Below, in pieces: positions 12,005-45,119 of a stretch of DNA of 64,000 bases (position 1 is its first letter; every line of letters begins with the position of its first letter). The notes beneath the pieces are model-generated. The model saw only the letters and a program-made list of their open reading frames with translations, did no database searches and had not been told where the DNA came from. The stretch is from the NCBI GenBank assembly GCA_963797975.1, contig CAWCRH010000006.1:10754-74753 (forward strand), in the 5' to 3' direction. Both the position numbers and the translations under genes were made by a program. The stretch comes from an uncultured Thermoplasmata archaeon. GTDB taxonomy: Archaea; Thermoplasmatota; Thermoplasmata; Lutacidiplasmatales; UBA184.

Positions 12005-12268
12005 ATGCAGCTCGGCCGGCTCCTCACCATCATCAATTTCGTCCTTCTCGGCACCGCGATCGCGGTCTACCTCTACCTTCCGTCCGTCGCCGACATCTTC
12101 TTGTACGTTCTGCTGGCGTGGATGTTCGGGAGCATCGTGCTGTTCTACCTCCCCATCTCTCAACGGCGGATCGGCAGTGGTGCGGCGCCTCCTCCGGCCA
12201 CCAGTGCCGCCTCGGCCGGGCCGGGGGAGGAGCCGCGCTCGCCTCGGTCGGACCCGTCGGAGCGATGA
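12005..12268 (+). CDS. small hypothetical membrane protein (2 TM)
   Basis: Two hydrophobic helices (LLTIINFVLLGTAIAVYLYL and FLYVLLAWMFGSIVLFYL). The stop overlaps the next start (ATGA). Confidence 0.3.
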   Translation: MQLGRLLTIINFVLLGTAIAVYLYLPSVADIFLYVLLAWMFGSIVLFYLPISQRRIGSGAAPPPATSAASAGPGEEPRSPRSDPSER

Positions 12269-12720: not shown

Positions 12721-13316
12721 TCCGGCGCGATCCGGACCATCGCTTCGTGGGCGCGAACGTTCGAACCGGCGCCCACCGTGATCTGGAGGACCCGGCCGGC
12801 GACCGGGCTCGCGATCTCGTTCCGCATCTTCATCGCCTCGAGGACGAGGAGAACCTGGTCTTTCGCCACGTGGTCGCCCACGCGGACTTTCACCTCGATG
12901 ATCTTGCCGGGCATGGGAGGAACCACCGCGGTCCCCGCCCCTCCTTCTTCGCTCGGTCGTTCCTTGGGGGTCGCCGGGATCACGATCGTCGCAGCCGGCC
13001 TCATGGTGGCCGGTCGGGAAGCTCCGACCTCCGCGCGGACCTCGCTCAGTCGCCACCGTTCCCCGTTCACATCGACCGGTCCCGGCGGCTCCGCGAGCCC
13101 CTTCGGCCACCCCTCGACGACGACCTTCTCGCCGCCGACCTCGAGCTCGATACGGTCGGGAGCCTCGGCGACGACCGTGTACGGGTAGCGGTGCTCCCCG
13201 ACCACCACTGTAGATCCGGCGAGGTCGACCTCGACCGATTCCCGCTTACCGTCGCGAACGATGCTGAGCCGCATCGACCCACCTCCGTTGGCCGAGGAGC
13301 CGGGCACGCCCTTCAT
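12717..13316 (-). CDS. biotin carboxyl carrier protein / biotinyl subunit (1.3S-like), possibly the C-terminal part of the upstream carboxyltransferase
   Basis: Canonical biotinylation motif EAMKM inside a biotinyl-domain sequence ([35 protein letters not shown]). The 130-aa N-terminal region resembles an OadA-type association/linker region. It overlaps the upstream ORF by 70 nt in another frame. Confidence 0.8.
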
Positions 13317-14782
13317 GCGCCCAGGGATTGACCGACCCTGCGTCGGCGGCGCGTGGGGCCGACGCCGATCGCGCGGCGGATTCGCGGGGCGCGCGTAGCG
13401 CTCCCACGATCCCGAGCGCCGCGCTCGTCAGGACCTCGTCCTTGAGCCCCTGGTCGAGGGCCGCACGATAGGAGCGGTAGACCTGAGGGAAGACCGCGTA
13501 GGAGAGGACCTCGGCGTCGTCCGCCGCTGGAACGAGCTGACGGACCTCCATGAGCCGCTTTTCGAACTCGGGCGGCAACAGGTCCGCCGGGCGGCCGGTG
13601 ATCGCGGGCTCGTCGCGAGTGACCTTCGCGCGGAGCACCGGATCGAGCGGGCCGGGTGGGCTCCCGTAAAGCCCGCGCACGTAGTCGCGGACCTCCCGAG
13701 TGATCGTGGCATAGCGCGTCCCGGCTAGCACGTTCATGACGGCTTGGATCCCCACGATCTGGCTGGTCGGCGTGACGAGCGGCGGGTAACCGAGGTCGGC
13801 CCGTACGCGCGGGATCTCTTCGAAGACCTCCTGCAGGCGGTCGAGGGCCTCCTGCTCTTCGAGCTGGCTCAGCAGGTTCGAGAGCATGCCGCCGGGGACC
13901 TGGTGGAGCAGGATCTGGGGGTCGGTCTGCAGGGCTCGGATATTGAGCAGGCCGCGGTAATGCTCCAGGACACGGCGGAAGTGTTCCGATATCTCCGCCA
14001 AGGCCCCGAGGTCGAGCTTCGGGTCGTGGTCGGTCCCGCGCCAGGCGCCGACCAGCGCTTCGGTCGGTGGCTGGGAGGACCCACCGGCGAACGGGCTCAG
14101 GGCGCTGTCGACCGCGGTCGCCCCAGCCTCGACGCACGCGAGGCAGGTGAGCGCCGACATTCCGCTCGACGAGTGAGTGTGGACGACCACGGGCAGTCCG
14201 ACCTCTTTGACCAGCACACGGACCAGCCGGGCGCCTTGATCCGGGGGCATGAAACCGCCCATGTCCTTGACACACAGCTCGTCCGAGCCGAGTTCGGCGA
14301 GCCGTCGACCGAGCCGAACGAACGAGCGCTAGGTCATGCACCGGCGACTGCGTGTAGCAGATCGTTCCCTGGGCGATCCCGCCGGCCTTCTTGACCGCGT
14401 CCAGTGCGACCTCCATGTTCCTCGGGTCGTTGAGCGCGTCGAAGACGCGGAAGATCGTGATTCCCTGACGGGCCGACTCCTGGACGAAGCGACGGACGAC
14501 GTCGTCCGGGTAGTGGCGATAGCCGACCAGGTTCTGCCCGCGCAAGAGCATCTGAAGAGGGGTGTTCGGCATCGCCCGCTTGAGCAGGCGCAGTCGCTCC
14601 CACGGGTCCTCTCGTAGGAACCGTAGGCACACATCGAACGTCGCACCACCCCAGACCTCGAGAGAGCGGTAGCCGATGGCATCCAGTTGCTCCGCCACCG
14701 GGAGCATGTCCTTCGTGCGCATCCGCGTCGCGATGAGCGATTGATGACCGTCGCGAAGGACCGTCTCGGTGATCTCGACCAT
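13246..14782 (-). CDS. pyruvate carboxylase subunit B / oxaloacetate decarboxylase alpha-like carboxyltransferase (5S-type), frameshifted
   Basis: The N-terminal 157 aa ([47 protein letters not shown]) lie in one frame. The continuation ([47 protein letters not shown]) lies in a +1 frame from about 14335. The shift is a single extra nucleotide near 14322-14336. Confidence 0.8.
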
Positions 14783-14804
14783 GGAGCCCGACCGTTCGGA
14801 GACC

Positions 14805-17655: not shown

Positions 17656-18966
17656 ATGCCGTTCCAGTCCGATATATGGACCGCGACCCGTGGAGCGTTC
17701 GTGAGCGGCAACCTGGCGAACGGCGCGAAGGCCCCGGACGCAGCGAACGCACCGACGAATGGAACCACTCCCGCACCGCTCCCCACCCTGCATCGCCGAC
17801 GTTCTATGGCCCCGGTCATCGCGATCGTGGTCGTGCTCGTCATCGTAGCTGCGGGGATAGGAATCGGGTACCAACAGCACTGGTTCGGAGGGGGCGGCGG
17901 GTCCGGCACTCACGCCGGCACCTGTCCCATGGGCGTCACGCTCGCCGGCAACGGAGCACAGTTCGTGAACCCGCTCGTGAGCCAGTGGGCGGCGAGCTAC
18001 TCCTCCCAGACGCAGAATGTCGTGAACTATGTGGACGGCGGGTCGGGCGCGGGCATAACGGACCTCGAGGACACGACGGTCGATTTCGCGGTCACCGATG
18101 ACCCGCTATCGCCCTCCGAGACCGCCGCGATGCCGGGGACCACCCTGACCTTGCCCGTGACGGGAGGGGCGCTCGCGATCCTGTACAATCTCCCCGGCGT
18201 CCCGGGTCACCTCAACCTCTCCGGGGCGGTCCTAGCCGACATTTACCTCGGCAAGATCACCCAGTGGAACGACCCCGCCATCCAAGACAACAACACGGGG
18301 CTCTCGCTTCCGGCCCAGACGATCCAGACGGTCCACCGCTCGGACGCCGCGGGCACGACGTTCGTCCTGACCAACCTGTTGTCGGACGACAGCATAGCCT
18401 GGCATCAGGGCCCCGGCACAGGGATCTCGATCTCTTGGCCCTCGAACCCTCCAGAGTCGGAGGCGATCAAGGGGAACTCAGCGCTGCTGAGCTACGTCCA
18501 AACCACCCACTACACCATCGGCTACTCGGACCTCACGGATGTCCTCACGGCCTCCTCCCCTGTCCAGTACGCCGCCGTCCAGAATCCGACGGGCAACTGG
18601 ATCGTCCCGACGCTCGCCAACACCGCTTCCGCGCTCTGGGATGCCGTGAACACTACCACGTTCCCGACCTCGGCCGGCAACTGGTACGCGGTCAGCGCTG
18701 TCAATGCCCCGGGGGCCACGGACTACCCGCTGGCGACCTTCGCTTACCTGTTCGTCTTCCAGAACGCGAATGTAGGTTTCGAGCCGAGCCTCCAGAAGAC
18801 CCAGGTGCTGAACCAGTGGCTCGCGTGGATCCTGAGCACGGGGCAGACGGAATCGAGCGGACCGAATCTCTACTACGTGGCCCTTCCTCCCACGCTCGTT
18901 AGCATCGACCAGGCCGGGATCCAGACCATCACGTATGGAGGAACGGCGGTCCCTGCCTGCACGTGA
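17656..18966 (+). CDS. pstS: phosphate ABC transporter substrate-binding protein PstS
   Basis: PstS-like sequence with an N-terminal signal-anchor (HRRRSMAPVIAIVVVLVIVAAGIGIG). The probable true start is Met at 17806. Many N-x-S/T sequons. Confidence 0.85.
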   Translation: MPFQSDIWTATRGAFVSGNLANGAKAPDAANAPTNGTTPAPLPTLHRRRSMAPVIAIVVVLVIVAAGIGIGYQQHWFGGGGGSGTHAGTCPMGVTLAGNGAQFVNPLVSQWAASYSSQTQNVVNYVDGGSGAGITDLEDTTVDFAVTDDPLSPSETAAMPGTTLTLPVTGGALAILYNLPGVPGHLNLSGAVLADIYLGKITQWNDPAIQDNNTGLSLPAQTIQTVHRSDAAGTTFVLTNLLSDDSIAWHQGPGTGISISWPSNPPESEAIKGNSALLSYVQTTHYTIGYSDLTDVLTASSPVQYAAVQNPTGNWIVPTLANTASALWDAVNTTTFPTSAGNWYAVSAVNAPGATDYPLATFAYLFVFQNANVGFEPSLQKTQVLNQWLAWILSTGQTESSGPNLYYVALPPTLVSIDQAGIQTITYGGTAVPACT

Positions 18967-19945
18967 GGGCGCGGTAGAGGGTCCCCCTCCCGGGTCGGCA
19001 GCGGTGGCGACCGGACCGAGACGGGACCGGCGCATCCAGCGGCTGGGGGCGTTCGACCGCCTGTTCCACACGGTCACCGGGCTGGTGGCCGCCGGGATTC
19101 TCCTCCTGATCGCGGCCATCTCCCTCGTCCTGGTCACCCAGGCGTACCCATCGATCGTTCACTTCGGGCCCGGGTTCCTTCTCTCCTCCTCGTGGGACAG
19201 CGTCCACAGCAACTTCGGAGCGTTGCCCGCCATCGTGGGTACTCTCGTGACGAGCGTGATCGCGCTCGTGATCGCGGTCCCCATAGCGCTCGGCGCCGCG
19301 ATGTTCATGTCCGACCTTGGCCCCCGGCGCCTGAGGGAGCCGCTCACCTACATCATCGACCTCTCCGCGGCCGTCCCCTCGGTCGTATTCGGGTTCTGGG
19401 CGTTCATCGTCGTGGTCCCGTGGATGCGATCGACCGCGGAACCGGACCTCGCCTGGCTCACGGGGGGCCGCTTTCCCTTCGGCGGACCTCCCCTCGGCCT
19501 CGACATCCTCACCGCCTCGATCGTACTCGCCATCATGATCATCCCGACGGTTGCCGCGCTCTCCCGCGAAGCGCTGCGCGCGGTACCGGCTTCCCAGCGG
19601 GACTCGGCCTTGAGCCTCGGGATGACCCGGTGGGATGCGCTGCGCATCGCGGGCCTACGCCCGGCGGCCCCCGGGATAGCGGCCGCCATCGTCCTCGGAC
19701 TCGGCCGAGCCCTGGGCGAGACGATCGCCGTCCTGATGGTGATCGGCAACATCTACCAGCTCCCGACCTCGCTATTCTCCCCGGGGACCACGCTGGCGAG
19801 CTGGATCGCGAACGACTTCACTGCGGTCGGCCCCGGTCTCGAGATGAACGCCCTCCTCGAGCTCGGAGTGGTCCTGCTGGTCGTCACTGTGGTCGTGAAC
19901 GTGATCGCGCGTTTGTTCTTCCGGCGCATCGCGAAGCTCCCCCGA
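18935..19945 (+). CDS. pstC: phosphate ABC transporter permease PstC (continues in frame into pstA with no stop)
   Basis: PstC motifs (IIPTVAALSREALRAVP, LGRALGETIAVLMVIGN). After about residue 335 the same reading frame continues through a Pro/Ala linker into PstA-like sequence. The boundary coordinate is approximate. Confidence 0.7.
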
Positions 19946-20969
19946 AACGGCGACGAGGCCACTCTCGGCGACGCCGAAGCGACCTCCGCGTCGGAGGTCC
20001 CGAGCCCGAACGTCGCCCCCATCTCCCCGAGGCTGCAGGCCCTCGCCGCCCTCCCGCCCCCGCCCCCTCACAGCGCGCCGTGGCGGGCGCGTCGCCTCGA
20101 ACGCAGACGTTGGGTCTACTACATCGCGATCGGCCTGGTCAGCCTCGCCATCGTGCTCGCGCTCGTGCCGCTCGTGGACGTCACGTACATCGCGGCCGAG
20201 CGCGGCGGTTCGGCCGTCATCCAGCCGTCGTTCTACACGTCGGTCCCGCCGATCGGATGTAATCCGGGCCACGGCGTGAACTGCTCTCTGGGCGGGATCG
20301 GTCCGGAGATCCAAGGGACACTCATCATGCTCGGGCTCGGCGCGGCGATCGCGCTCCCGGTCGGGATCTTCAGCCGGGATCTACCTCGCCGAATACGGGA
20401 GAGGTCGGTTCGCGAGGGCGGTCGACTTCGTCGTGGACGTGATGACGGGGATCCCGACCATCTTGCTCGGCGTCTTCGTGTTCGTCGTGTTCCTGCGGCT
20501 GGACCACAACGCGGCCTTGAGCGCGCTCTCGGGCTCGGTCGGGCTCGCCATCCTGATGATCCCGATCGTCGTGCGCGGGACGGTCGAGGCCCTGAGGACC
20601 GTTCCCCGTGAGGTCCGAGAGGCCGCGGCAGCTCTGGGCTTTCCGCGCTACCGGACGAACTTACGGGTCGCGTTGAGTTGCGCTCGAGGAGAGCTGGTCA
20701 CGGGTGCGTTGCTCGCCGCCGCCCGCGCCGCCGGGGATACCGCCATCCTGCTCGTGACCGCGGGGGGGAGTATCCTTTGGTTCCAGGGACTGAACTCTCA
20801 GACCGCGGCGATCACGCCGTTCATCTTCAGTAACTTCCAGTCGGAGTACACCAATCTGCAGACCGATGCTTGGGGCGCGGCCCTGGTCCTCCTCATTATC
20901 ATGCTCGCGATCAACCTGGGGGCCCGCCTCGCGACACGCTCCCACGTCGTGATCGCGGAGCCCGGGTGA
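19946..20969 (+). CDS. pstA: phosphate ABC transporter permease PstA, frameshifted
   Basis: The PstA N-terminus (RRRWVYYIAIGLVSLAIVLALVPLVDV...LPVGIFS) is in the pstC frame. The C-terminus (GIYLAEYGRGRFARAVDFVVDVMTGIPTILLGVF...) is in the frame of ORF 20433..20969. A single extra C at about 20372-20378 (agCCggg) separates them. Confidence 0.7.
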
Positions 20970-24324: not shown

Positions 24325-24762
24325 CTACGGGATCGCCCTTAGGCGCTGGATCATCTTCACGACGGCTCGGACGGCGTTCGCCGCGTTCTCGATGCGGTCT
24401 TGCGCCTGGAGCCGGGTCTCACCCGGACCCGTCACTCCGAGCCCGACCGGCTTGCCCGAATCGACCGCGAGGTCGGCGAGCTTACGCGCGGCCTGTTGCA
24501 TCACGACCTCGTCGTGCTGCGTCTCGCCCTCGATCACGGCGCCGATCGCAACGACCGCGTCCACATCCTTGCGTCCGAGCAGGACCTTGGCGGCCAGCGG
24601 TAGGTCGAAGACCCCCGGCGTCTTCACGACTGGGCCCAACCGGGCGCCCAGGAAGCTGACCTCTTCCTTCGCGCGTTCGAGCATCGCGAACGTCACGTCG
24701 AAGTTGTACTCGCTCGCCACGATCGCTACGCAGATCCCCTGATTCCCTTCGTTCTTCGCCAT
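24325..24762 (-). CDS. ribH: 6,7-dimethyl-8-ribityllumazine synthase
   Basis: 145-aa C-terminal part of ORF 24325..25353, starting at MAKNEGNQGICVAIV. Typical lumazine synthase length and motifs (ASEYN, VVAIGAVIEGETQHDEVV). The upstream extension of the ORF overlaps ribC in another frame and is Arg-rich noise. Confidence 0.8.
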   Translation of the reverse strand: MAKNEGNQGICVAIVASEYNFDVTFAMLERAKEEVSFLGARLGPVVKTPGVFDLPLAAKVLLGRKDVDAVVAIGAVIEGETQHDEVVMQQAARKLADLAVDSGKPVGLGVTGPGETRLQAQDRIENAANAVRAVVKMIQRLRAIP

Positions 24763-24812
24763 CGTTTGTTCCTGGTGGACTGTGATCGATCCCGGCTCGT
24801 CGCCCGCGACGC

Positions 24813-25707
<895 letters not shown>

Positions 25708-26582: not shown

Positions 26583-28052
<1,470 letters not shown>

Positions 28053-29883: not shown

Positions 29884-31182
29884 CTACGCGGCCTCCTCTT
29901 CGGCCTTGGGCGGCTCGGCGGCCTTCGGGAGGTGCGCGACGGACGGGCGGTAGACGAGGTTCACCGCGCCCGTTCCGAGCGTGATCGGCTGACCGACGAT
30001 GATGTTCTCGGCGACCCCCTTGAGCTCGTCGGTCTCCCCCGTGATCGCGGCGTGCAGAAGGTGGGCCGCCGTGATCTCGAAGGCGGCGCGCGCGAGCACG
30101 CTGCTCTTCTTGCCCGAGATCCCGTGGCGACCGATCGCGCGGATGTCCCCTTCGTTGGTCATGACGTCGGCGACCAGCATCAGGTGACGGAGGTCGACGG
30201 AGAGCCCCTGCTCTGCGAGCGTCCGGTTCGCCTCGTGGATGAGCGCGTGACGCGCGGCCTCCACCCCGAAGACGCGATAGATCTCGAACACGGAGTTCGT
30301 CGTCGTCCGGGACGCGTCGACACCCGGGATCTCGAGAACGGCCTCGAGGTTCGACCCTTCTGTGTAGATCACGTATTCGTCCTTCTCGCGGCGAATGAGG
30401 GCGCGGCGGATACCGGCGATGCCCTGGATGCGCGTCGCCTTCGCGTCCTCGCTCGCCTGCAAGAGCTTGCGGAACGGCATCTCCTCGACCGGTTCGTCCT
30501 TCTTCGCGCGCGGGGGCGCCTCGGGCTTCTCCTTGAGCATGATCTCGATTGAGCGCGCTTCCCCGGAGCCCGAGCCGGGCCGGATCTCGAAGAGGCGGCT
30601 ATCGAGCGACTCGTTCAGGGCCCGCTCGATGTCCGCCCGCTGGACACCCCGAGCCTTCAGGAGCTCGACGTGCGGGCTGATCACGACCTTCAGCTGTTCG
30701 ACGACCGTCCCGACGGCCGCGACGTCGGGGACGTCGGTGACCTCGACCTGCAGCGCGATCGACTGGACCTTCGCCCGGTCCTTGCGCTGCGCCGGAAGGA
30801 CGTAGACCGTCATCATGGGGGTGGATGGGACCCTCCGCGCGTCGACCAGCTCGATGAGCCGCGGGAGCCCGAGCGTGACGTTCATCTCGGCGACGCCCGC
30901 GTAGTGGAACGTGCGTAGCGTCATCTGCGTACCGGGTTCGCCGATCGATTGCGCCGCGATGATCCCGACCGACTCGTGGGGGTCGACCAAGGCCCTGCGG
31001 AAACGGTCGGCGACCGCCTCGATCGCCTTGGTCATCTCCGCCGGCGGGAGCTTGAGCCGAACAAGGTTGTTCTTGAGCTCCTGGGTCAGCGACGGGGGGA
31101 AGCGAAGGCCCTCGCGGTGCACGATCTCTTCGATACGCGCCTGGATCGGCTCGCGCGGCGGTTTCTCCTCGGGCATGTTCAC
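29884..31182 (-). CDS. rpoA2: DNA-directed RNA polymerase subunit A''
   Basis: [33 protein letters not shown] and other RpoA'' blocks. GTG start overlapping the rpoA1 stop. Confidence 0.9.
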
Positions 31183-33959
31183 TCCCCCCCGAAATCCGTG
31201 CTCTCTTCCGGGGTGCCGACGTCATCGCTCTCCTCTTCTTCGGCCTCCTCTTCCAGAAGCGCCTCCGCTTGGAGGTCCATCTCCTCCTCGGTGACCGGGG
31301 GCGGTGAACCGGTTCCGGACCGTCCATCTCGTTCGGACGCACGCGATGGCCGAGCACCCGCGAGAGGATCTCCTCGACCGCGACCGCGTGACCGTTGTAG
31401 CTGCGCGTGGGGTCGACGCCGTCCTCGCCGTACTGGTACTCGATCACGGTGCCGGCGGTGTTGCGAACCGTTCCGTCCTCGACCACCTTGAGGTCCTCGA
31501 GAGCGTTGATCAGACGGCGCTGCATGTAGCCCGAGCGGCTCGTCCGCACGGCGGTGTCGACGAGCGATTCCCGCCCGCCCATCGAGTGGAAGAAGTACCT
31601 CCGTCGGGCTCAGTCCGTGCTTGTAGCTCGAGCTCACGAACCCGCGCGCATCCGCGCCCAGGTCGCCGCGCGCGAAATGCGGGAGCGTCCGGTTGTAGAA
31701 CCCGCGCATCAGGCGCTCGCCGCGCACCGATTGCTGCCCGACGGCTCCGGCCATTTGCGTCAGGTTGAGCATCGAGCCGCGCGCGCCGCTCTTCGCGAGG
31801 ATCACCGCGGGGTTCTCGAGTCCCAGATAGCGGCCGGCGATCTCCCCGGCCGCGTCGCGCGCCTTGCCCAGCTCGCGACGAACCATGACCTCGAGCGTTT
31901 CCTCGAGCGAGCGTCCGGGCATCTGCTCGAGCTCCCCCGCGCGGTACTGCTCGACGAGCTCGTTGACCGTGACGCGCGCGGTCTCGAGCGACTTGGCGAT
32001 CTCGCGCCGAGCGAGCTCGGGCACGTCCTCATCGTCGATCCCCGTGGACAGGCCCTTGAGACCGATCGCCGTGATCGCGAGCCGGCTCATCTCATCCAGG
32101 AACTCGCGCGCGCGCGCCATGCCATAGTTACGGGCGATCGCGTCCAGAACGGCGCCCTTTTCGTAGGCGATCGCTTTCTTGTCGATCGTACCCGCCTTGA
32201 GCACCCCGTTCTCGATGATGACCGTAGAGTCGTGCTTACAGTGAGCCGGCGGGCAGTCGCACTTCGACCAGATGTTCGAGTGGAACTGGAGCGAGAGGTC
32301 CTTGGGCAAGGTGAGGCTGAAGAGCTGTTTGCCGGTCCAGAATGGCACTCCGTCCTTGTCGCGCCCGGCCGGGGGAGGCTCCGGGTAGCGGACCTTGCTC
32401 AGGAGGTAAGCGACCTCGCTCTGGTTGAACGTGGGGTTCTGGTAGGTCAGTAAGAACGCCGCGGTGATGTGGTCGTGAAGCATCCCGATGATCGGTCCGC
32501 CGTAGCGGGGCGACATGATGTGCTCCTCGACCTTCATCAGGACCTTTGCCTCGGCGCGGGCCTCCTGGCTCTGGAGCACGTGCAGGTTCATCTCGTCGCC
32601 ATCGAAGTCCGCGTTGTAGGGCGTACAGTCGCACAGATTGAATCGGAAGGTCTTGTGCGGCAGGATGCGAACGAAGTGGGCCATCATGCTCATCCGATGC
32701 AGGCTCGGCTGCCGGTTGAACAGCACGATGTCGCCGTCCACGAGCTGGCGCTCGACGATGCCAGCCGGGGGTAACGAGCTCGGCACATGCCTCGGCGTTC
32801 TTCTCCATCACCTTGATCCGCTGGCCATCGTCGCGCACCAGGTAGTTGACCCCGCAGCGGTAGCGCCCGTCCTCGTTGGGAGCGGGATTGGGCCCGCGCT
32901 GCACGAGCTCCTTCGCGACCGGCTGGTTGTGCACGGTGACCTCGAGCGGGACGGTGAGGCCGCGGGCGACCTCCATGGGAACGCCCACCTCGTTGATGGA
33001 GAGAAGCGGGTCGGGGCTGATGACCGTTCGGGCCGAGAAGTTCACGCGCTTACCGGACAGGTTCGACCGGAACCGACCGTCCTTGCCCTTGAGCCGCTGC
33101 GCGAGGGTCTTGAGCGGGCGGCCGGACCGGTGGCGGGCCGGAGGGATCCCGCTGGTCTGGTTGTCGAAGTAGGTCGTGATATGGTACTGCAGAAGCTCCC
33201 AGAGGTCCTCCACGACCAGCTGGGGCGCGCCCATGTCGCGGTTCTCGCGCAGCCGTTGGTTGATCCGCAGGACGTCGACCAGCTTGTGGGTAAGGTCGTC
33301 CTCGCTTCGCTCTCCGCTGTCGAGGGTGATCGAGGGGCGGACCTGCACGGGCGGGACCGGCAGGACGGTGAGGACCATCCACTCCGCAGGCCGAACTTCG
33401 GCTCGAGCCCGAGGTCGCGGACGTCTTCGTCCGGGATCCGCTCGAGGCGAGCGCGGACCTCCTTGGGAGTGATCTTGTGCCCGCTCTCGCGGAACGTGGT
33501 CGGTTTGTCGAGCAGGATGCGCTGCTGGATCTCGTGGCAGTGCGGGCAGCTTCGTTCCTCTTTCGTCTCCCGGGTGCGGGGGGCGCCCTCTTCGCTATCG
33601 GCCGACGATTCGGACCGCGGGCTCGGGGCGTCCGGTAGCCGGCGGCCGCACGCGCGGCAGGTCGACTGCAGTAGCCGCTTGATCTCCTTCGCATAGCCGA
33701 CGTGGATCACCGGCATCGCGAGCTCGATGATCCCGAAGTGGCCCGGGCATTCGTTGACCCGGCCGCCGCACGTGCGGCAGCGCAGGTTCGGCTCGATGAC
33801 CCCGAGGTGAAGGTCCATCAGGCCCATCTCGATGGGAAACCCGTCGTCGTCGTACGTGTCCGCTGTGATGATCTTGATCGCGCTCATCCGCCGGATCTCG
33901 TCCGGCGAGAGGAAGGCGAACTGCAGGCTCTTGATCTTCTTGGAGAGACCCTGTGCCAT
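31179..33959 (-). CDS. rpoA1: DNA-directed RNA polymerase subunit A', interrupted by two frameshifts
   Basis: Three consecutive ORFs (33959-33042, 33378-32236, 32786-31179) together give a colinear RpoA'. The N-terminal Zn motifs are [16 protein letters not shown]. The first junction is [20 protein letters not shown] near 33385-33400 and looks like a 1-nt deletion. The second junction is [32 protein letters not shown] near 32757-32770 and looks like one extra C in a C-run. [10 protein letters not shown] is present. Confidence 0.9.
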
Positions 33960-38853: not shown

Positions 38854-39214
38854 CGTGTTCTTCTCCGTTTGTCCTCGTTGGCCCACGCGACGCTTCGCTT
38901 CTCTCACTTCGCGGATGCCTCGATCGTTGCCCGTCCCTACGTCTCGGGAGCGGACTCGAACTCCTCTTGGAGGTCGTTGATCACTTGATCGATCACCGCG
39001 CCGGACGATGCGGCGTGATATTCGCGCACGCCTCCCGCCTCGCTCGAGACCCGGGCCACGAGCTCTGGCCCACCGCGAAGGAATTCTACGTTGCAAATAA
39101 GCTCCTCCATCGATGGCCGGGCCCCCCCGAGCCGCGCGGGTCGCACAAAGGCCCCCTATATATGCTTTGAGTACCGCCGGAATCTCGGTGGGCGGAGGAC
39201 CCCACTAGGAGCGT

Positions 39215-40666
39215 GTAGCCCTATTCCCCTTATCTCCTGACGACCGGTCGAAGCGAGGTACTATAGCCGGCCTCGTCTATGAACCGGCATGCCGACCGAG
39301 AGTCGCCCGACGTTCCGAAAGTACGACCCGAAACAGACGCTCCTCCTTCCGCCGAATCTCGACGAGTGGCTCCCGAAGGATCACCTCGCCCGTATCGTGG
39401 CTCAGGTGGTCGATGACCACCTCGATTTGAAACCGTTCCTCGCGAACTATCACAATCAGTCCGCCGGGTTCCCGGCCTTCGACCCTCGCCTGCAGCTCAA
39501 GATCCTTCTCTACGGCTACTGTGTGGGCGTGGCGAGCTCACGCCGCATGGAGAAGGCCACCTACGAGGACCTCGCCACCCGTTGGCTCGCCGCGGATCAA
39601 CATCCGCACTTCACCACCCTCGCACGCTTCCGCCGACAGAATCTCCCCATCATGGACCAGCTGTTCCACCAAGTGCTCGAGCTTTGCCGAGAGGCCGGCC
39701 TGGTCAAGCTCGGTCGGGTGGCGCTGGACGGGACCAAGATCAAAGCCAGCGCCTCCAAGCACAAGTCGAAGAGCTATCGGAAGATTCGAGAGGAAGAGAC
39801 CGATCTCCGTCGAGTGGCCCATGATCTTCTCCGAGAGGCCGAGCGCGTCGATACGGAGGAGGACGAACTCTACGGGCCCGAGAAGAACCCGCTGCTCCAC
39901 CCCCTTCCGTCGGACTGGAAGGAGCGGTTGAAGAGGCTCAAGCAGGCCCGCCAAGTGATCGAGGAGCGGGAGCGGAAGAAGGGCAAGGTCGAGCCGGAGG
40001 CGAAGGTCCAGTACAACTTCACCGACCCGGACTCGCGCATTCTGCAGGAGAGCGGGAACAAGGGGGGCTACATTCAGGGCTACAATGCCCAGGCGGCGGT
40101 CGACACGAAGAGCCAGGTGATCGTGATGGCGGAGGTGACGCAGGAGAACCCGGACAACCAGCACCTCATCCCGATGGTGGAAGCGATCGAGCGGGAGCTC
40201 GGTGAGCTTCCGCCGAAGGTCCTCGTTGACGCGGGATACTTCAGTGAGGCGCAGATTCGAGTGGTCGAGGCGAAGGGAGTGGAGGTCTACTGTCCCCGGA
40301 GCCGTGGAGGATGGCGGAGAGTGCACCGTGTCCTCGAGGGCGTCCCCCTCTCAACGAACGGTTCACCCAGTTCATGCGACGGAGGGTACGTCGTGTGCGA
40401 GGGCGAAGGGAGTATCGGTGGCGGAAGGTCAGCATCGAGCCGACGTTTGGCCAGATCAAGCAGGGAAGAGGACTACGGCAGTTCCTCCTCCGAGGGCGCG
40501 AGAAGGTCGGGGCGGAGTGGAAACTCTGGTGCCTGACCCACAATCTGCGTAAACTCCACACCGCGGGCTGGAGTTGAGGGGCGAGAGCGGCAAACGGGGA
40601 AGGAAAGGAACCCCCCTCCGCGAGGGACGAGCTCCGCTGGCCACGCTGTAAATCGAATAGTCCTAC
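39215..40666 (+). mobile_element. IS element (IS5/IS1182-superfamily-like) with imperfect terminal inverted repeats
   Basis: Transposase gene at 39289..40577. Candidate IRs are GTAGCCCTATTC (39215-39226) and GAATAGTCCTAC (40655-40666, reverse complement GTAGGACTATTC). The ends show a local GC drop. The boundaries are approximate. Confidence 0.55.
39289..40577 (+). CDS. DDE transposase (DUF772 N-terminal domain plus DDE_Tnp_1-type catalytic domain), frameshifted near the C-terminus
   Basis: N-terminus LLPPNLDEWLPKDHLARIV...FDPRLQLKILLYGYCVGVASSRRME. DDE region VLVDAGYFSE. The conserved C-terminal end (RKVSIEPTFGQIKQGRGLRQFLLRG...LWCLTHNLRKL) is in another frame, as ORF 40311..40577. The frame change is near 40305-40330. 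Confidence 0.8.
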
Positions 40667-40672
40667 GGGCTC

Positions 40673-42187
40673 CTAGCCGAGTGGCCCGCCACAGTCCTTG
40701 CAGAAGTGACTGGTGGCTTGAGCCGGGCAGCCGCACCGAGGGCACGAACGGACGGGGGCATAGCCCGGGGCGGTGTACCCAGCGGCCGTTCCCATCGGTG
40801 TAGTAGGACCTGGAGGTGGAGCGGGCGGAGGCGGCCCTCCTGGACTCGGCGGAGCAGCGCCTGCCGTTGGCGGGGGCAACCACGCGTACGACGAGGTGGG
40901 CGGCGCGTCGGGCGGGGGCGAGACCGGGCCAGCGGCGGGGACACGGCGGGATCGGATGGACGCGACCGCGGCGACCGCAACGCAAACGACGATGATCGTC
41001 GCTAGGGTGATGATGAGCGTGTTTCCGGTGAGGCCGAAGAGCGAGAAGGGGGGCAAGACCGAGGAGTTACCTCCGCTGCCGCTCGAGCTAAAAGAGATGG
41101 ATCGACTGGCGTCGGCGCCGTTGATGTCTACCGACCCGCTGGATGGGCTCGCGGTGTACCCCGAGACGGATTCCAGCGAGAACGAGTAAGGCCCGTTACT
41201 GAGACCGTGGAACGAGATCGTCGTGCCGCTGCTGCTATTCGACCCCACATTACTGACCGTCACGCTCCATTGCGTGTTCCCCGGTAGTCCGCTCTCCGTG
41301 AACGTGAGCGTGAAGGTGGATACTTGGGTGAACGTCACGTTCTGGGAGGCGGGAGCTCCGCTGACCGTGAGGCTCGCGGAGGACGGGTTGGCGGTATAGC
41401 CGGAGGCCGCCACCGTGTAGGCATACTGCCCGTTGGGTTCCATGAACGTGATGGAAGTTGCATTCGAGCTCTGGGGCACGCCCTCTAGCGTGACGGTCCA
41501 ACGGACCGAACTCCCGAGCCCCGTTTCTGAGAACACGACCGGGTACGTTGCTGCGATCGTAAAGGCGATTGACTGGTTGACCGCCGCTCCGCTGACCGTG
41601 ATGGGTCCCGACGACGGGGTCGCCGAGTAGCCCGAAGCATTGGTCGCGAACGTGTAGGCGCCGTTCTCGGCGGAGAAACTCACCGTTTGGGGACCGCAGT
41701 AGCCCGAGGACGTTCCCGCCGTGCACGTCTCCGTCGCGCTGTTGAAGGTGACCGACCAGTTCGTTCCGTTCACCAGTCCGCTCTCCGAGAAGGTCACGGG
41801 ATACGCCATAGTCCGGTTGGCCGGGTTCCCGGCGTTCGCGACCGTGTAGCTCACGACCCCTTGGTCGTTGCCGCCGCTCGCCGCGCTGACGGCCCAGTCC
41901 GACCCAGACCCGCTCCAGACGAGATTAAGCGCGATCTCACCGGTCTGGTCTACCGCTGAACCGTACGGGGCCGCGTTCGGAGTGGGCAGGAACTGGCTTT
42001 GCCCGGACATCTCTACTTCGCTGGTGAGCGTGCCGGGCGGTCCCGCTCTGGAAATCCCCCTGCCCGGCCGAGGGCCCACCGACGAGCCCGAGCTGCGGCG
42101 CGAGCCCTCCGGGAAGAGGGGTGTCCGGGAAGGGCCCGTTCGAGTATTGGGACCCCTGCCAGTAGTACTCGTAGTTGTAGCCGCCAA
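40673..42187 (-). CDS. repeat-containing surface protein: about four tandem ~80-aa beta-rich repeats, one TM helix, a Pro-rich tail and a C-terminal Zn ribbon; possibly the C-terminal half of the upstream sedolisin
   Basis: Repeats have the consensus Y-x-V-T-F-[ST]-E-S-G-L-x-x-[GN]-T-x-W-[ST]-V-T ... N-G-x-Y-[AS]-[FY]-[ST]-V ... S-G-Y-[ST]-A-[ST]-P-S-S-G-x-[IL]-T-V-[SN]-G-A. There are many N-x-S/T sequons. The TM helix is LIITLATIIVVCVAVAAVASI, followed by RSRR, a PPxP tail and CPRCGCPAQATSHFCKDCGG. There is no signal peptide. The first ~60 residues of the ORF look like out-of-frame noise and overlap the sedolisin ORF. Confidence 0.6.
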   Translation of the reverse strand: MAATTTSTTGRGPNTRTGPSRTPLFPEGSRRSSGSSVGPRPGRGISRAGPPGTLTSEVEMSGQSQFLPTPNAAPYGSAVDQTGEIALNLVWSGSGSDWAVSAASGGNDQGVVSYTVANAGNPANRTMAYPVTFSESGLVNGTNWSVTFNSATETCTAGTSSGYCGPQTVSFSAENGAYTFATNASGYSATPSSGPITVSGAAVNQSIAFTIAATYPVVFSETGLGSSVRWTVTLEGVPQSSNATSITFMEPNGQYAYTVAASGYTANPSSASLTVSGAPASQNVTFTQVSTFTLTFTESGLPGNTQWSVTVSNVGSNSSSGTTISFHGLSNGPYSFSLESVSGYTASPSSGSVDINGADASRSISFSSSGSGGNSSVLPPFSLFGLTGNTLIITLATIIVVCVAVAAVASIRSRRVPAAGPVSPPPDAPPTSSYAWLPPPTAGAAPPSPGGPPPPAPPPGPTTPMGTAAGYTAPGYAPVRSCPRCGCPAQATSHFCKDCGGPLG

Positions 42188-44596
42188 TGATGAACGCTGC
42201 GCCGGGGACCGGAAGTTGCAGGGTGTTGGTGTTGATCTGGAAATTCATCACAGGGTTCGGACCGTTGTCGGTGAGCCAGCTGCGCATCGTCCAGTTGATC
42301 GGGGTCGTTATGGTCGAGCCGTTCACCGGGACGTTGTACTCGTAGACGGACTGGGACAGGTATAGGCCGTAGAAGGGGAAGACGACCCAGCCGGTGTAGT
42401 TGACCGACCAGCCAAATGGACTCCTCGCGATGTAGATCACATTCTGGATCCAGTAGATCGGCGCGCCGAGGCTGTTTGCCAGGAAGAAGTTCTGCTGAAC
42501 CGACGCGTTGTACGCGACCCCGGCCGAGGTCACGTTGAGTCCGGTCAACGAAAGGACGTTCTCGACCCCATTTAGTGAGAAATCCTGACCGCTGTAGTTG
42601 TAGTTGAGGACATAGGTCGTGAAGTTGTAGGCGTCCAGCGATCCCCAGCCCGTGACCAGGTCGTACCCCCGCAGAGCGGAGAACGCGAAGTTCATCCCGA
42701 CGGTCACATCGTTCAGCGGAAGGCTCGGGAGCGTGCTATTCCAAGCACCCGTGGGGGTAAATCCGGTCGAGTTCGTATCCGCGAACGGGGTGACCATCGC
42801 GTCCGCCCACTGGTAGATCGTCGGGTCGACGAACCCCAACGACGGCTTCGTGTAGTGGGCCAGGACGGCGTCGATCTCGGCGAACAGGCCCGCGGTCACC
42901 GGGGAAGCGATGGACGTTCCCCACGCCCAGTACCACTTGGGACGTGCCCCCGTCCACCGTGAGGTAGATGATCGTGTTGTTCGCGATCGCGGCGACGTCA
43001 GGGTACGCCGCGGTTCGACCCTAGTCCTGCGGAGAGGATTACGCCATTTGCCTCCGAGCTCACCTGCCAGGAGGGCTCGCCGTAGAACGGACTCACGCCT
43101 CCGGAGCTCCCAACCTGGTCGGTGCCGGAGTCGTAGTGGGGGTTGTACCAGGCGACCTCGCTCTGGATATGGAGGTACTGGGCGGCCGGGAAGGTCTGCG
43201 TGGTTAGCGTGAGGGTGGTTCCGCCGACGGCCGTTACCCCGTAGGCATCGAACCCCACCGTGGAGGGAAACTCCGTGTCCCCACCGGACCAGCGAGAAGA
43301 GAACTGAGAGTCACCCGCATCCCCCGTGGAGGCGAGGACCGTGATGCCTCGGGCCGCGGCATCCTGCATGTACGACGTCCATGCCGCGTCGGTATGGTCC
43401 TGCTCGCCCCAGGAGTTCGTGATCACGTTGACGCCGGGAAGGTTGCTGAGGATGTATCCCATCGCCGCATCGGTTTCCGAGTCCAGCGAGCTCAGGCCGT
43501 AGACGTTGTAGATGGTGCTCCCTGGCGCGACGCTTCCGACCATGTCGACGTCCAGCGTGTTCTCGAAGACGGCGCCCGACACGTCAAAACCTGCCTGGAT
43601 CCCGGGGGCGGGAGCACCGTCGAACGGTACCCCGATCACCGTGGAGTGCGGCTGGCCCGCCGGAATCGTGTCATTGTAGTAGCTGTAGACGTCGTTCGGG
43701 TCGTAGCTTCCGGTGAGGTCCGCCGAGGGGCACGTCCCGGACGTCGAGATCGTGCAGCCGGCCCAGAGGATCGTCGCAACCTGTTCCCCGGTCGGGAACG
43801 TCACGTTGAGCAACGCTTGCTCGTCGTAGGCAACCTGCAGGTCGGACCCGTACAGGCATTGGGTCCCGCCACAGTTCTCCGGGGCGGGATATCCGCCGGA
43901 CCGCGCTGCGGCGGGACTCAGATCGGGCAGAGGGGTCACGTCGGCGAGCGTCGTTTGCGCGTCCAGGTAGCTCGACAACCCCTCGAGCTGCACGACCGAC
44001 GAGGCGATCGGCGCGGGCAACGTCGGAGCGCCCACGGGAGCGTAGTACGCCCCGCGGCCCTCGCTCGTGTACGACGCCAAGGAGACCCCGAACGCTTGGT
44101 CGACCGAATGGGCCGGTCCCTGAACCAGCATGCCGATCCGATCCGCGTAGGAGATGACGGTGAGTCCGTCGACCGCACCGAAGTAGCTCTTTGCGCCGGC
44201 GTAGGGCGCCGGCGCGGGGGCGAATCGGGAAATGAATTGGCTCTCCGTCAGATAGTGATGGTACTGCGGGCTTTGTGGATTGGCCAGAGCCGAGAGCAGC
44301 GTGTTGAGCTGGCTCGAGTTCGTGAGAGCGAACGTGACGAACACCGAGGCGTCCCCCGAGTAGGAACCGGTCATGGCGGCACCCGCCGGGGCGCCGGATA
44401 GGGAGGGCACCGGAGCTCGGGGAGCGGCCTCGATGGCGGCCAACGCCATGGATGAACCGAATGGGGGCCCGGTCGAGGCCAAGGATGCTCGAGGGGCGAT
44501 ACCGGCAAGGCTCGGCCCGAGGATCGTGGCCAGGGAGACCATGATGACAGCGGCCGCGAGCAGGAGGGGGAAACCGGCGGGTCGGTAAGGTGGCAC
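41937..44596 (-). CDS. sedolisin (peptidase S53, pro-kumamolisin type) with signal peptide, frameshifted two or three times
   Basis: GGAG about 8 nt upstream of a GTG start at 44596. Signal peptide RPAGFPLLLAAAVIMVSLATILG. Pro-kumamolisin activation domain (VFVTFALTNSSQLNTLLSALANPQSPQYHHYLTESQFISRFAP). Catalytic region ITNSWGEQD ... GVTAVGGTT ... RGVPDVAAIANNTIIYLTVDGG ... WGTSIASPVTAGLFAEI, spread over three frames (ORFs 44902-42998, 42957-42736, 42899-41937). Shifts are at about 42996-43003 (stop plus frame change) and in the C-run at 42947-42951. A glycosylation-rich extension lies C-terminal to it. Confidence 0.8.
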
Positions 44597-44849
44597 GAAA
44601 TTTCTCCTGCCGCCGTCCCTGTCAGCCAGGACCAAAGAAAGCGCGCTTGGGATAATCCTTCTGGGATGGAGGCAGCCCGAAGAGGACCCCGCACCGTTCG
44701 ATGGGGTGAAGGAACGGAGAAAGCCCTCTCGTGCTCTTTCCAGGAGAAGGACGGACCGTCGCGTGGTCGACGAGCGAGACGAAGTGGGAAAACCGCGGGC
44801 GAACGTCGGCACAGCCGTTATGAACGGCACGCGGCTCGGCCGGTCGTCG

Positions 44850-45119
44850 ATGGCAACCGGACCGAATGCGGAAGCGGTCGTGGAAGTGCGCGTCGAGCTC
44901 AAGCCGGGAATCCTGGACGCTGAAGCCGAGAACGTCGAGAAGGCCCTCGGACTATTGCGAATCGCACCGGTTCCCCGGGTCGTGACCGCCCGAATCTACG
45001 AACTTCACTTTCGAGGTATCTCTCTGGACGAGGCCGAGGCCCGAGCCCGGGAAGCGGTCGACCGCCTGCTGGCGAACCCGGTCGTCCACCAGGTCACGAT
45101 CCGACGGCGTACCCCCTGA
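44850..45119 (+). CDS. purS: phosphoribosylformylglycinamidine synthase subunit PurS
   Basis: About 89-aa C-terminal part of ORF 44706..45119 (VVEVRVELKPGILDAEAENVEKAL...ARIYELHF). Typical PurS size, immediately upstream of purL. Confidence 0.7.
   Translation: MATGPNAEAVVEVRVELKPGILDAEAENVEKALGLLRIAPVPRVVTARIYELHFRGISLDEAEARAREAVDRLLANPVVHQVTIRRRTP

Follow-up and report, generated by a model that had tools for sequence, protein, structure and literature searches.

The window, a 64,000-nucleotide stretch of DNA from an uncultured Thermoplasmata archaeon, carries three minus-strand open reading frames (ORFs) at 42998-44902 (634 aa), 41937-42899 (320 aa) and 40673-42187 (504 aa), of which the second and third overlap by 251 nt in different frames. 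Re-reading of ORFs and motifs located the features described in the initial annotation where it had placed them, namely NSWGEQ, WGTSIASP, a transmembrane (TM) helix followed by IRSRR, a Pro-rich tail and CPRCGCPAQATSHFCKDC (C-x2-C-x10-C-x2-C). We suggest that the three ORFs are in all probability one gene (Table 1), encoding a type I membrane-anchored pro-sedolisin and broken where the deposited assembly has erroneous single-base insertions. An IS element occupies the 95-nt spacer behind the gene. At its right end it runs into the stop codon, leaving the stop unchanged, and its termini are imperfect 22-bp inverted repeats that begin CTAGGAGC, CTAG being present at either end. The insertion is absent from the orthologous loci L001 and L002.

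Table 1. Features of the pro-sedolisin locus in the window; residue numbers refer to the repaired protein.
Feature	Position	Strand	Details and basis
Promoter-like box aaggattatcccaagc (TATA-like)	44645..44660	-	same 16-mer upstream in L001; putative function
Whole gene, pro-sedolisin fusion	40673..44596	-	~1306 aa once three extra bases removed; stop TAG 40673-40675
N-terminal signal sequence or hydrophobic segment, MPPYRPAGF-PLLLAAAVIMVSLATILGPSLAG	44498..44596	-	hydropathy and conservation in homologues
Pro-kumamolisin activation domain, residues 77-208	43973..44368	-	Pfam PF09286
S53 catalytic domain, residues ~235-655	42630..43894	-	profile vs PDB
Catalytic Glu345; Asp349	43562-43564; 43550-43552	-	motif alignment
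Oxyanion Asp426; Ser561	43319-43321; 42912-42914	-	motif alignment
Frameshift J1	43001..43004	-	one extra C in GTACCCTGAC (RGVP/DVAA); three-frame translation and DNA alignment
Frameshift J2	42935..42944	-	one extra base in GGGGGCACGTCCCAAG, directly upstream of WGTSIASP
Frameshift J3	42035..42037	-	one extra C in ACCGCCCGGC (QSGTA/GTLTSE); junction of "sedolisin" and "repeat protein" ORFs
Thermopsin-like beta-sandwich, residues 656-928 (273 aa)	41810..42629	-	conserved Q700, N702, Y714-W715, Q717-N718, Q834, T884, E886
Three tandem beta-sandwich stalk modules, residues 931-1016, 1017-1093, 1094-1168	41090..41803	-	motif [YF]-x-[VL]-x-F-[ST]-E-[ST]-G-L
TM helix, residues ~1187-1212	40958..41035	-	hydropathy up to 2.98; AF2 helix, model residues 279-302
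IRSRR stop-transfer and Pro-rich low-complexity cytoplasmic linker (predicted), residues 1213-1280	40754..40957	-	sequence
C-terminal Zn ribbon, CPRCG-x10-FCKDCGGPLG	40676..40753	-	weak Pfam matches, conservation, AF2 pLDDT 85-90
IS1182/IS5-like element	39205..40677	+	Pfam DUF772, DDE_Tnp_1 and DDE_Tnp_1_6

By tblastn, residues 1-1328 of orthologue P0002 are covered from 44596 to 40676 in frames -1/-2/-3/-1. Once repaired, the protein can be aligned over its whole length with homologues P0001-P0009, and intact homologues of 1242-1423 aa match it over their full length at 50-73% identity (up to 74%). The single reading frame of about 1300 aa that had been proposed earlier is borne out by syntenic orthologues, which are unbroken ORFs of 1303-1328 aa at the purS / AsnC-rpoH locus in other Thermoplasmata; in L001 and L002 the single ORF lies between purL-purS and a 57-aa-AsnC-UPF0147-rpoH-rpoB array. 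We looked for a genuine stop behind the sedolisin domain, for an independent signal-bearing start of the repeat protein and for a well-known family matching the repeats, and found none of these. Mechanical ORF calling of the window would instead split the locus into two or three genes, with the sedolisin secreted on its own and the repeat protein with its Zn ribbon an independent membrane protein, and the gene calls of the source assembly are truncated likewise elsewhere in the window. This reading, which we regard as extremely improbable, is already contradicted by the homologues, the best 120 of which are all single proteins with the thermopsin-like domain spanning the supposed boundary, and by AF2, which folds that domain across J3 with a pLDDT of 94.7. 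Moreover, a signal sequence is missing from the 504-aa ORF, which opens with ~50 spurious residues read out of frame.

Compared with the orthologous DNA of L001 and of L002, the +1 bases at 43004 (J1), ~42941 (J2) and 42037 (J3) are all uncompensated. At J2 the DNA alignments give a net +1 at 42941-42944, where homologues read ...P-x-x-Y-x-x-WGTS, and across J3 homologues continue unbroken (GQG-F---TAG-LT). A 29-codon piece in the third frame (43020-42934) links RGVP/DVAA to ...YWAWGTSIASP. Two more frameshifts than the initial annotation had described thus cut the sedolisin itself. A biological reading of the disruptions does not hold, the same kind of 1-nt indel breaking rpoA' of this window four times (frames -3/-2/-3/-1/-3), with each piece 94-98% identical to L002. 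One frameshift each is found in pycB, pstA and a small membrane protein, and the IS transposase is split similarly. The small membrane protein is a 125-aa Zn-ribbon protein for which a truncated 87-aa call is on record at NCBI/ENA. Because the syntenic orthologues are intact and like frameshifts occur in the essential rpoA' and in pycB, pstA and the small membrane protein, the frame breaks are, judged from sequence, most probably assembly artefacts and not decay.

Alternatively, the three frameshifts could be true mutations by which the protease gene lost its function, possibly once the IS had inserted beside it. Three uncompensated +1 indels within 3.9 kb, next to an IS that abuts the stop codon, would fit a young pseudogene, and since Thermoplasmata genomes can hold several paralogues (three loci in MAG YP1.bin63, for example), loss of one copy could be tolerated. 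We consider such inactivation quite unlikely. The density of indels is even higher in essential rpoA' (four in 2.8 kb, one of them inside the universally conserved GGREGLVDTAV...SGY region), and pycB, pstA and the small membrane protein are split too. The IS leaves the coding sequence untouched and, indels aside, this is undamaged, with no in-frame stops and with the catalytic and structural invariants all retained.

For the single gene that we favour, the likely start codon is GTG 44596, opposite Met1 of P0002 in the alignment and with AGGAG 8 nt upstream; the earlier ORF start at 44902 arises only because the frame stays open further upstream. The N-terminal segment reaches a Kyte-Doolittle value of 2.36 (19-residue window). 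Just two hydrophobic segments are found in the whole protein, with RSRR behind the second and all 22 N-x-S/T sequons ahead of it.

The prodomain matches PF09286 with E = 4.9e-15 (56.5 bits; cutoff 23.5) and aligns to residues 27-163 of pro-kumamolisin 1T1E. In profile searches of the PDB, the protein matches kumamolisin (1T1E, E = 7e-28; 1SIO, 1.8e-22) and TPP1 (2.4e-13). The motifs align as ENTLD/EVELD, GDAGD/GDSG and GTSIASP/GTSAVAP, the Glu-Asp-Asp-Ser tetrad is intact and invariant in 7/7 aligned sequences, and a Ca-site-like GYDLVTGWGS is present. As measured by these alignments, the likeness to kumamolisin and to the intact homologues is far beyond chance.

What had been described as a glycosylation-rich extension of the sedolisin is really a compact beta-sandwich domain of 273 aa (pLDDT 94.7), whose likeness to thermopsin had been missed. 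We suggest that it is distantly related to the thermopsins. On its own the domain has no Pfam match, failing the thermopsin model, and direct profile-profile comparison with thermopsins is weak (hhalign probability 14%, E = 0.0019, 56 columns); the homology is seen solely via an intermediate group. Thermopsin of Sulfolobus acidocaldarius (MEROPS A5, PF05317) is likewise an all-beta domain of similar size, and its candidate active-site residues Q109, N111, Q128, D/N129 and E305 (Rawlings 2013; PMC3842238) correspond to Q700, N702, Q717, N718 and E886 here. However, two acidic thermopsin positions are amides in the window protein (D129 to N718, E259 to Q834), and thermopsin is a free enzyme whereas this domain sits within a sedolisin. 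No PDB chain matches the domain at sequence level. The glutamic peptidases G1 (aspergilloglutamic peptidase, 1Y43) and neprosin (7ZVC, 7ZU8) share 6-12% sequence identity with it, and non-enzymatic ConA-like proteins score equal to or above G1 and neprosin.

The stalk repeats, previously counted as about four, number three (86, 77 and 75 aa; pairwise identity 38%), and AF2 models them as three beta-sandwiches with pLDDT >94, which we describe as CnaB/transthyretin-like. A C-terminal TM helix is present in 112 of the 120 best homologues. The Pro-rich linker behind it has an AF2 pLDDT of ~47-65 and is therefore taken to be disordered; its length varies from 50 to 130 aa among orthologues and it holds none of the 22 sequons. 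We infer from the positive-inside rule and this sequon distribution that the C-terminal tail is cytoplasmic. The order given by the initial annotation, from secreted sedolisin through beta-sandwich stalk and single TM anchor to a cytoplasmic-side Zn ribbon, appears correct.

This order of modules resembles that of Saci1846, with a thermopsin-family domain, three Ig-like domains and a C-terminal TM (PMC12207459), raising the possibility of a primarily structural envelope protein, a SlaB/Saci1846-like stalk that anchors or organises the surface layer, with proteolysis secondary. The 22 sequons are in keeping with this, and through the cytoplasmic tail the stalk could be held by something intracellular. 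We think such a primarily structural role unlikely, as >100 homologues retain the whole prodomain together with an S53 tetrad that is intact and invariant, which argues for selection on catalysis, and a canopy protein is not known for the lineage. Structural and proteolytic roles are, moreover, not mutually exclusive.

The Zn ribbon stays below the Pfam thresholds in the window protein (DZR 0.0023; Zn_Ribbon_1 0.017, 15.3 bits against 25), whereas that of orthologue P0003 passes Zn_Ribbon_1 (28.5 bits, cutoff 25), and R-x-CP-x-CG...C-x2-CG-x2-L is invariant in 7/7 sequences. The window also encodes a second TM-linker-Zn-ribbon protein, of 125 aa with two TM segments. Ribbons of PF12773, PF13240 and PF13248 are described as intracellular, with a TM and then an extracellular domain behind them (PMC3355149). 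A role in signalling or anchoring, as suggested earlier, is a guess. In its signalling form the extracellular protease/lectin-like part would sense substrate and the ribbon would act on nucleic acid or a regulator, possibly freed by intramembrane cleavage like a membrane-tethered transcription factor. In its favour, proteins that combine a ribbon of these families with a TM and an ectodomain have been suggested to be membrane-tethered regulators (PMC3355149), the ribbon stays invariant next to a freely varying linker, and an AsnC-family regulator and the RNA polymerase operon are constant neighbours of the Zn-ribbon orthologues. Nevertheless, we give a signalling device little credence. A single 25-residue ribbon without basic patch or HTH would be a poor DNA binder, neither a site-2-protease-type partner nor a cleavage motif was found, the synteny includes purS/purL too and may merely reflect a conserved core region, and the same tail occurs on the 125-aa protein, which has no sensor domain.

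In the reading that we favour, the protein would be a glycosylated acid protease tethered at the cell surface and feeding on extracellular protein, its activity, glycosylation and Zn binding all being predicted. The signal sequence would export ~1180 residues, and the C-terminal helix with RSRR, by the positive-inside rule and sequon distribution, would halt transfer, so that the Pro-rich linker and Zn ribbon remain cytoplasmic. In the acidic exterior the pro-kumamolisin domain may be removed autocatalytically, as in kumamolisin, leaving a presumably active Ser-Glu-Asp protease ~10 nm above the membrane on three CnaB/transthyretin-like modules that are probably heavily N-glycosylated. Extracellular protein would be broken down and the peptides would feed a protein-scavenging organism. 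The thermopsin-like domain between protease and stalk, constant in the family, could bind substrate or glycan or act as a second acid-peptidase module. The Zn ribbon, its position seemingly reversing the widespread layout in which an N-terminal ribbon precedes a TM and an extracellular domain, would most likely tether or cluster the protein via a cytoplasmic partner, the weakest step of this proposal.

The protease family is known and common in Thermoplasmata, with >250 relatives, nearly all from this group and labelled "S53 peptidase" in the databanks, and extracellular (acid) S53 peptidases have been predicted for Cuniculiplasma and Lutacidiplasmatales (PMC5155288, PMC9287336). We found no paper on the domain layout of the large Thermoplasmata S53 peptidases, and the full layout including an intracellular zinc-binding tail is undescribed. 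The earlier statement that the protein belongs to no described family was thus overstated. Large Thermoplasmata S53 peptidases (P0093 of Cuniculiplasma sp. SKW4, an "S53 family peptidase" of 1415 aa; MAG proteins P0009-P0120) are of the same family and share a prodomain, S53 domain, 265-290-aa thermopsin-like domain, 1-17 repeats and C-terminal TM. Only the Zn-ribbon tail sets a clade apart: most of these proteins end 1-40 residues past the TM, whereas a 50-134-aa Pro-rich tail with Zn ribbon occurs in only 15 of the 120 best homologues, and all readable Zn-ribbon loci (8/8) hold the same purS-adjacent syntenic position.

Kumamolisin and sedolisin (MEROPS S53; 1T1E, 1GT9, 1SIO, 1GA6) and human TPP1 share with the window protein the N-terminal pro-kumamolisin activation domain, the Glu-Asp-Ser triad and oxyanion Asp in E-x3-D, GD-x-GD and GTS-x-x-x-P, and the Ca-site-like G-x-D-x-x-TG-x-GS; acid activation would be expected as well. 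Characterised S53 enzymes are soluble, with precursors of ~550 aa, whereas the window protein has long insertions inside the catalytic domain and ~650 more residues after it (thermopsin-like domain, three stalk modules, TM and Zn-ribbon tail). The thermopsin-like S-layer-associated proteins Saci1846/M164_1049 and SlaB of Sulfolobales, likened to the window protein by description, lack the sedolisin domain and the Zn-ribbon tail and serve S-layer anchoring in a different phylum. Zn ribbon-TM-extracellular proteins such as those with a YARHG domain likewise combine a short C4 cytoplasmic ribbon, a low-complexity linker and one TM (PMC3355149), but there the ribbon is N-terminal and the topology type II, whereas the window protein would be type I with a C-terminal ribbon and a protease ectodomain.

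By translating the protease gene in three frames we found that its coding signal passes through all of them. A mechanical listing of minus-strand ORFs breaks the gene into 42998-44902 (634 aa), 41937-42899 (320 aa) and 40673-42187 (504 aa), and the overlap noted between the last two is confirmed at 251 nt. In translation, frame '2' ends ...GLGSNRGVP*, frame '0' contributes a short piece (...DVAAIANNTIIYLTVDGG...), frame '1' carries ...YWAWGTSIASPVTAGLF... through ...GDFQSGTA, and frame '2' then resumes (GTLTSEVEMSGQ...) as far as the stop at 40673-40675. Every step is a +1 shift, that is, one extra base. Compared with the DNA of both L001 and L002, the orthologous loci of two relatives in which the gene is intact, the window holds an uncompensated single extra base at each of three junctions (J1 to J3; Table), each inside a short G/C run. 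The exact site of J2 is uncertain by ~25 nt, which touches ~8 residues ahead of WGTS.

The gene was repaired by deleting one base per junction, and the repaired protein was searched against 5.8 billion proteins, yielding 269 relatives. The single frame of about 1300 aa proposed in the initial annotation is borne out by this comparison. The best relatives are intact (1321, 1328, 1303 and 1423 aa; 74-59% identity; 90-99% query coverage), a seven-sequence alignment is gap-free across all three junctions (RGVPDVAAIANNT, ...Y-x-x-WGTS[IV]ASP and GQG-F---TAG-LT), and the orthologue is a single ORF at both loci placed on contigs, those of the two closest relatives. The motifs listed in that annotation are likewise all present: NSWGE, GTSIASP, [YF]xVxF[ST]E[ST]GL repeats, a TM helix, IRSRR, a Pro-rich tail and CPRCG-x10-FCKDCG. 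At the 5' end, the tblastn match of the intact 1328-aa orthologue P0002 begins at 44596, a GTG with AGGAG 8 nt upstream; further upstream lies a 16-nt box (aaggattatcccaagc), shared without change by L001. Since 44597-44902 only continues the open frame into purS (promoter and CDS), we take the gene to be 40673-44596, encoding 1306 aa once repaired.

To locate similar breaks elsewhere in the window, a simple GC3 frame plot was too noisy; a codon log-odds track performed better, and its candidates were then examined singly. Clear evidence of indel errors comes from rpoA', encoding RNA polymerase subunit A', which is matched by the 926-aa RpoA' of L002 in frames -3/-2/-3/-1/-3 in pieces 94-98% identical, with four indels in 2.8 kb and a universally conserved segment in the 'wrong' frame. 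This gene is essential and cannot be a pseudogene, yet it carries four indels, and we therefore read the breaks in the protease gene as errors rather than mutations. Programmed frameshifting was weighed as well and rejected: the three shifts have the same sign and lie at unrelated sites, no slippery heptamer is present, the orthologues have no shift, and the same type of shift occurs in rpoA'. The disruptions, regarded as a noteworthy feature of the locus at first reading, are thus assembly errors, and the protease gene is very probably intact in the organism. In a gene for pyruvate carboxylase B or oxaloacetate decarboxylase alpha (pycB/oadA), the HMGL-like domain changes frame midway: its N-terminal half is read in one and the remainder, with PYC_OADA, in another. 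A small membrane protein of 125 aa is also broken; its homologues are all intact (125-128 aa, with PF13240), and because its shortened 87-aa product (P0255) is already on the NCBI/ENA record, in a contig of 573,943 bp, the errors reside in the deposited assembly. So long a contig in a metagenome suggests that long reads were used. The count comes to at least 11 indels in 64 kb.

Some further features of the window bear on the scan. Upstream of the PstA-like gene, a permease ORF (558 aa) runs without a stop into the N-terminus of this second permease, which may be either a natural fusion or one more error. The riboflavin cluster at 24.3-26.4 kb was considered as a frameshift and rejected, as it consists of separate genes (ribH and a paralogue). 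This lumazine-synthase-family pair lies beside a DHBP synthase gene, and the paralogue is probably the archaeal riboflavin synthase. A dip in GC and coding signal at 26.4-28.4 kb is explained by an archaeal 16S rRNA gene that is complete (1470 bits) and lacks an adjoining 23S.

Table. Positions of the frame breaks and of other features in the window
Feature	Position (nt)	Strand	Remark
J1 extra base	43004	-	DNA alignment, GTACCCTG
J2 extra base	42941-42944	-	DNA alignment, GGGGGCACGTCCC
J3 extra base	42037	-	DNA alignment, CCGCCCGG
rpoA'	31182-33959	-	
rpoA' indels, four of 1 nt	~33387 (deletion), ~32780 (insertion), ~31600, ~31330	-	against L002 RpoA'
pycB/oadA	13249-14790	-	split at ~14270
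PstA-like ABC permease	18935-20969	+	split at ~20400
Small membrane protein, 125 aa	12005-12376	+	frameshift at ~12200-12266
IS1182/IS5-like element	39205-40677	+	DUF772, DDE_Tnp_1, DDE_Tnp_1_6; missing from orthologous loci
IS transposase frameshift	~40310	+	split reading frame
57-aa acidic protein (MEELICNVEFLRGGPELVARV...)	38940-39110	-	no Pfam family
16S rRNA gene	26583-28050	-	
ribH and paralogue	24328-25353	-	

In the repaired frame, the predicted protein is a member of family S53 (the sedolisins) on every point that a sequence can decide. A predicted signal (residues 1-33; a short basic N-terminus, then a 23-residue hydrophobic core) is followed by a prodomain at residues 77-208 (PF09286, pro-kumamolisin activation; E = 4.9e-15, 56.5 bits against a cutoff of 23.5) and by the S53 catalytic domain (residues ~235-655). 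Against the PDB, the family profile matches pro-kumamolisin (1T1E, 7e-28), kumamolisin-As (1SIO, 1.8e-22), TPP1 (2.4e-13) and sedolisin (1.9e-7), and the motifs ENTLD, GDAGD and GTSIASP align onto EVELD, GDSG and GTSAVAP. The Ser-Glu-Asp triad and the oxyanion-hole Asp (E345, D349, D426 and S561) are invariant in the seven-sequence alignment; they align with E78, D82, D164 and S278 of kumamolisin. Ser561 lies just past J2, and the set of catalytic residues holds only in the repaired frame.

What had been taken for an extension after the sedolisin is a constant folded domain. Residues 656-928 form a unit of 265-290 aa in 66/66 homologues examined, and their AF2 model is all-beta (pLDDT 94.7, pTM 0.92). 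In the window this middle domain matches no Pfam or NCBIfam family even at E <= 10, and its profile finds no PDB sequence at E <= 10; Pfam Thermopsin (PF05317) is matched, sub-threshold to weakly, by 5/22 family members (best 8.7e-6). The domain profile matches only 137 cluster representatives among 1.84 billion, and the weak tail of these matches consists of non-S53 proteins with the domain C-terminal of Kelch, FG-GAP, PD40 or PKD modules. Such distant, non-sedolisin relatives (loci L004-L080, proteins P0181-P0225) form a sequence bridge to the true thermopsins.

For the comparison by hhalign, the S. acidocaldarius sequence (PF05317 E = 2.9e-88; 100% identity to the databank entry) served as anchor of the thermopsin set. 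A single sequence of the domain matched thermopsin with a probability of 1.7%, and the domain alignment matched thermopsins directly with a probability of 14% (E = 0.0019) over 56 columns only. Because both direct matches were too weak alone, the link had to be made through the intermediate group recovered among the cluster representatives: this group matches the S53-borne domain at 99.85% (1.4e-30) and the true thermopsins at 88.2% (3e-6) over 209 columns. Aligned jointly, the three groups share conserved columns at Q700, N702, Y714-W715, Q717, N718, P765, Q834, G839, F848, T884 and E886. On these matches and shared columns we call the domain thermopsin-like, by which we mean a predicted distant homologue of thermopsin without Pfam-level membership.

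Possible active-site residues of thermopsin have been proposed as Q109, N111, Q128, D/N129 and E305 (Rawlings, 2013; PMC3842238), and the three-group alignment places these at Q700, N702, Q717, N718 and E886. The Gln/Asn/Gln/Glu set is thus kept, whereas amides occupy two positions that are acidic in thermopsin: N718 (Asp there) and Q834 (Glu, E259). The domain may bind substrate or glycan, or it may be a second peptidase, and we consider it rather unlikely to be catalytically active. Rawlings (2013) found no fold for family A5 (PMC3842238). The predicted fold of the thermopsin-like domain appears to resemble the glutamic peptidases neprosin and aspergilloglutamic peptidase; our literature search, with incomplete coverage, found no description of a fold relation between thermopsins and glutamic peptidases. 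A glutamic-peptidase-like fold of this beta-sandwich would bear on how peptidases of MEROPS family A5 act.

The stalk (residues 931-1168) consists of three tandem modules, 86, 77 and 75 aa long (38% pairwise identity). Each is a confident AF2 beta-sandwich of the CnaB, SdrD-B or transthyretin-like kind, and together they form tandem seven-stranded prealbumin-like beta-sandwiches. A profile search had been proposed for these repeats; in it Pfam and NCBIfam put them in no named repeat family, the only Pfam matches being SdrD_B (E = 2.5) and DUF1214 (0.0017), both below cutoff, with no NCBIfam family matched. PF13620 or PF08308 occurs in some homologues. The TM helix (residues 1187-1212) is followed by IRSRR, and hydropathy peaks only at residues 5-33 and 1183-1212, with RSRR after the second. 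All 22 of the 22 N-x-S/T sequons fall between residues 93 and 1176 and none in the tail, which fits an ectodomain outside and a tail inside. We infer a type I topology, with the C-terminal helix as the putative stop-transfer.

Beyond the helix, a disordered, Pro-rich linker (residues 1213-1280) leads to the predicted Zn ribbon (residues 1281-1306; AF2 pLDDT 85-90), which has all four Cys, none of them varying among orthologues. Against Pfam, the window's ribbon is sub-threshold (PF13240 Zn_Ribbon_1, 15.3 vs 25 bits; PF12773 DZR, 18.5 vs 27.3), and that of the orthologue P0003 passes PF13240 (28.5 vs 25 bits). PF12773, PF13240 and PF13248 ribbons usually lie in the cytoplasm, in proteins with one TM helix and an extracellular domain, and signalling has been suggested for them (PMC3355149). 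The protease has the same ribbon-TM-ectodomain layout, here mirrored to the C-terminus. In the small membrane protein of the window, two TM helices are followed by RR and an Ala/Pro-rich linker, which leads to a C-terminal PF13240 ribbon (FCIYCG...CPACG). With this second TM-linker-ribbon protein, the tail looks like a reusable cytoplasmic module of the lineage rather than one specific to the protease. For its putative role we favour tethering or clustering via a cytoplasmic partner over transcriptional signalling.

The family is essentially confined to Thermoplasmata, with 77 loci in GTDB species representatives and several paralogues per genome being common; one or two matches are labelled bacterial, one of which spans the S53 part only. 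Among the best 120 homologues, 112 have a C-terminal TM helix and the number of repeat motifs varies from 0 to 17. A search for the whole architecture in related genomes, as had been advised, was successful: a long tail ending C-x2-C...C-x2-C is found in only 15 of these 120, the others ending 1-40 residues past the helix. The Zn-ribbon form is kept down to ~50% identity, with a linker free in length and sequence. In databanks the family is labelled 'S53 family peptidase' or 'protease pro-enzyme activation domain-containing protein'. The structure drawn in the initial annotation was largely right, and its novelty was overstated.

Gene order is the same in the window and at both relatives' loci: purL-purS (divergent), the protease ORF, the 57-aa gene, AsnC, UPF0147, rpoH, rpoB and rpoA'. 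Among the fetched loci, the position between purS and 57-aa-AsnC-UPF0147-rpoH is occupied in 8/8 with the Zn ribbon and in 0/~45 readable ones without it; the ribbon-bearing form is therefore a single lineage of orthologues that keeps its place on the chromosome. The 57-aa gene always comes next after Zn-ribbon orthologues, and its product is 95% identical to that of L002, whereas the protease is far less conserved (~65%). In the window, the IS element lies between the protease gene and the TATA-like box of the 57-aa gene. Its ends carry imperfect 22-bp terminal inverted repeats (CTAGGAGC...), missed by repeat search and found by local alignment, with CTAG at each end; the right end overlaps the TAG stop of the protease, which is unaltered.

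The predicted protein has every catalytic residue of the self-activating acid serine-carboxyl peptidases, to which it is homologous, and its folded head-stalk-anchor layout is conserved. In its working, the ectodomain would be exported by Sec and heavily N-glycosylated, acid would trigger loss of the prodomain, and environmental protein would be cleaved at the cell surface, supplying peptides. This agrees with published accounts of these organisms. A bolder reading, which we regard as improbable, is a two-headed acid protease linked to the cytoplasm. Here the thermopsin-like domain would act as another peptidase (glutamic-peptidase-like fold, Gln700/Gln717 and Glu886), the Zn ribbon would bind a partner in the cytoplasm by which the enzyme is positioned, clustered or regulated, and further membrane proteins of the lineage would share the tail. 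If true, the second peptidase would also point to the catalytic type of the thermopsins (family A5), a long-standing question.

These results affect how such genomes are read. In long-read metagenome-assembled genomes, one 1300-aa surface protein can show up as three 'genes', and pseudogene counts or domain censuses from this assembly require frameshift-aware handling, rpoA' itself being broken four times. In acidophilic and soil Thermoplasmata, the chief family of predicted extracellular proteases appears to be membrane-tethered, stalked and multi-domain rather than a free enzyme, and counts of 'extracellular peptidases' in Thermoplasmata genomes should be read as cell-surface proteolysis, not released enzymes. 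Our literature search found no account of a fusion of a sedolisin with a thermopsin-like domain, of the stalk and anchor, or of the Zn-ribbon clade; its coverage was incomplete, and this is absence of evidence only. The protein would work like the archaeal surface proteins SlaB and the thermopsin-like Saci1846, in which a stalk of beta-sandwiches carries a head and is anchored by a C-terminal TM helix (PMC12207459).
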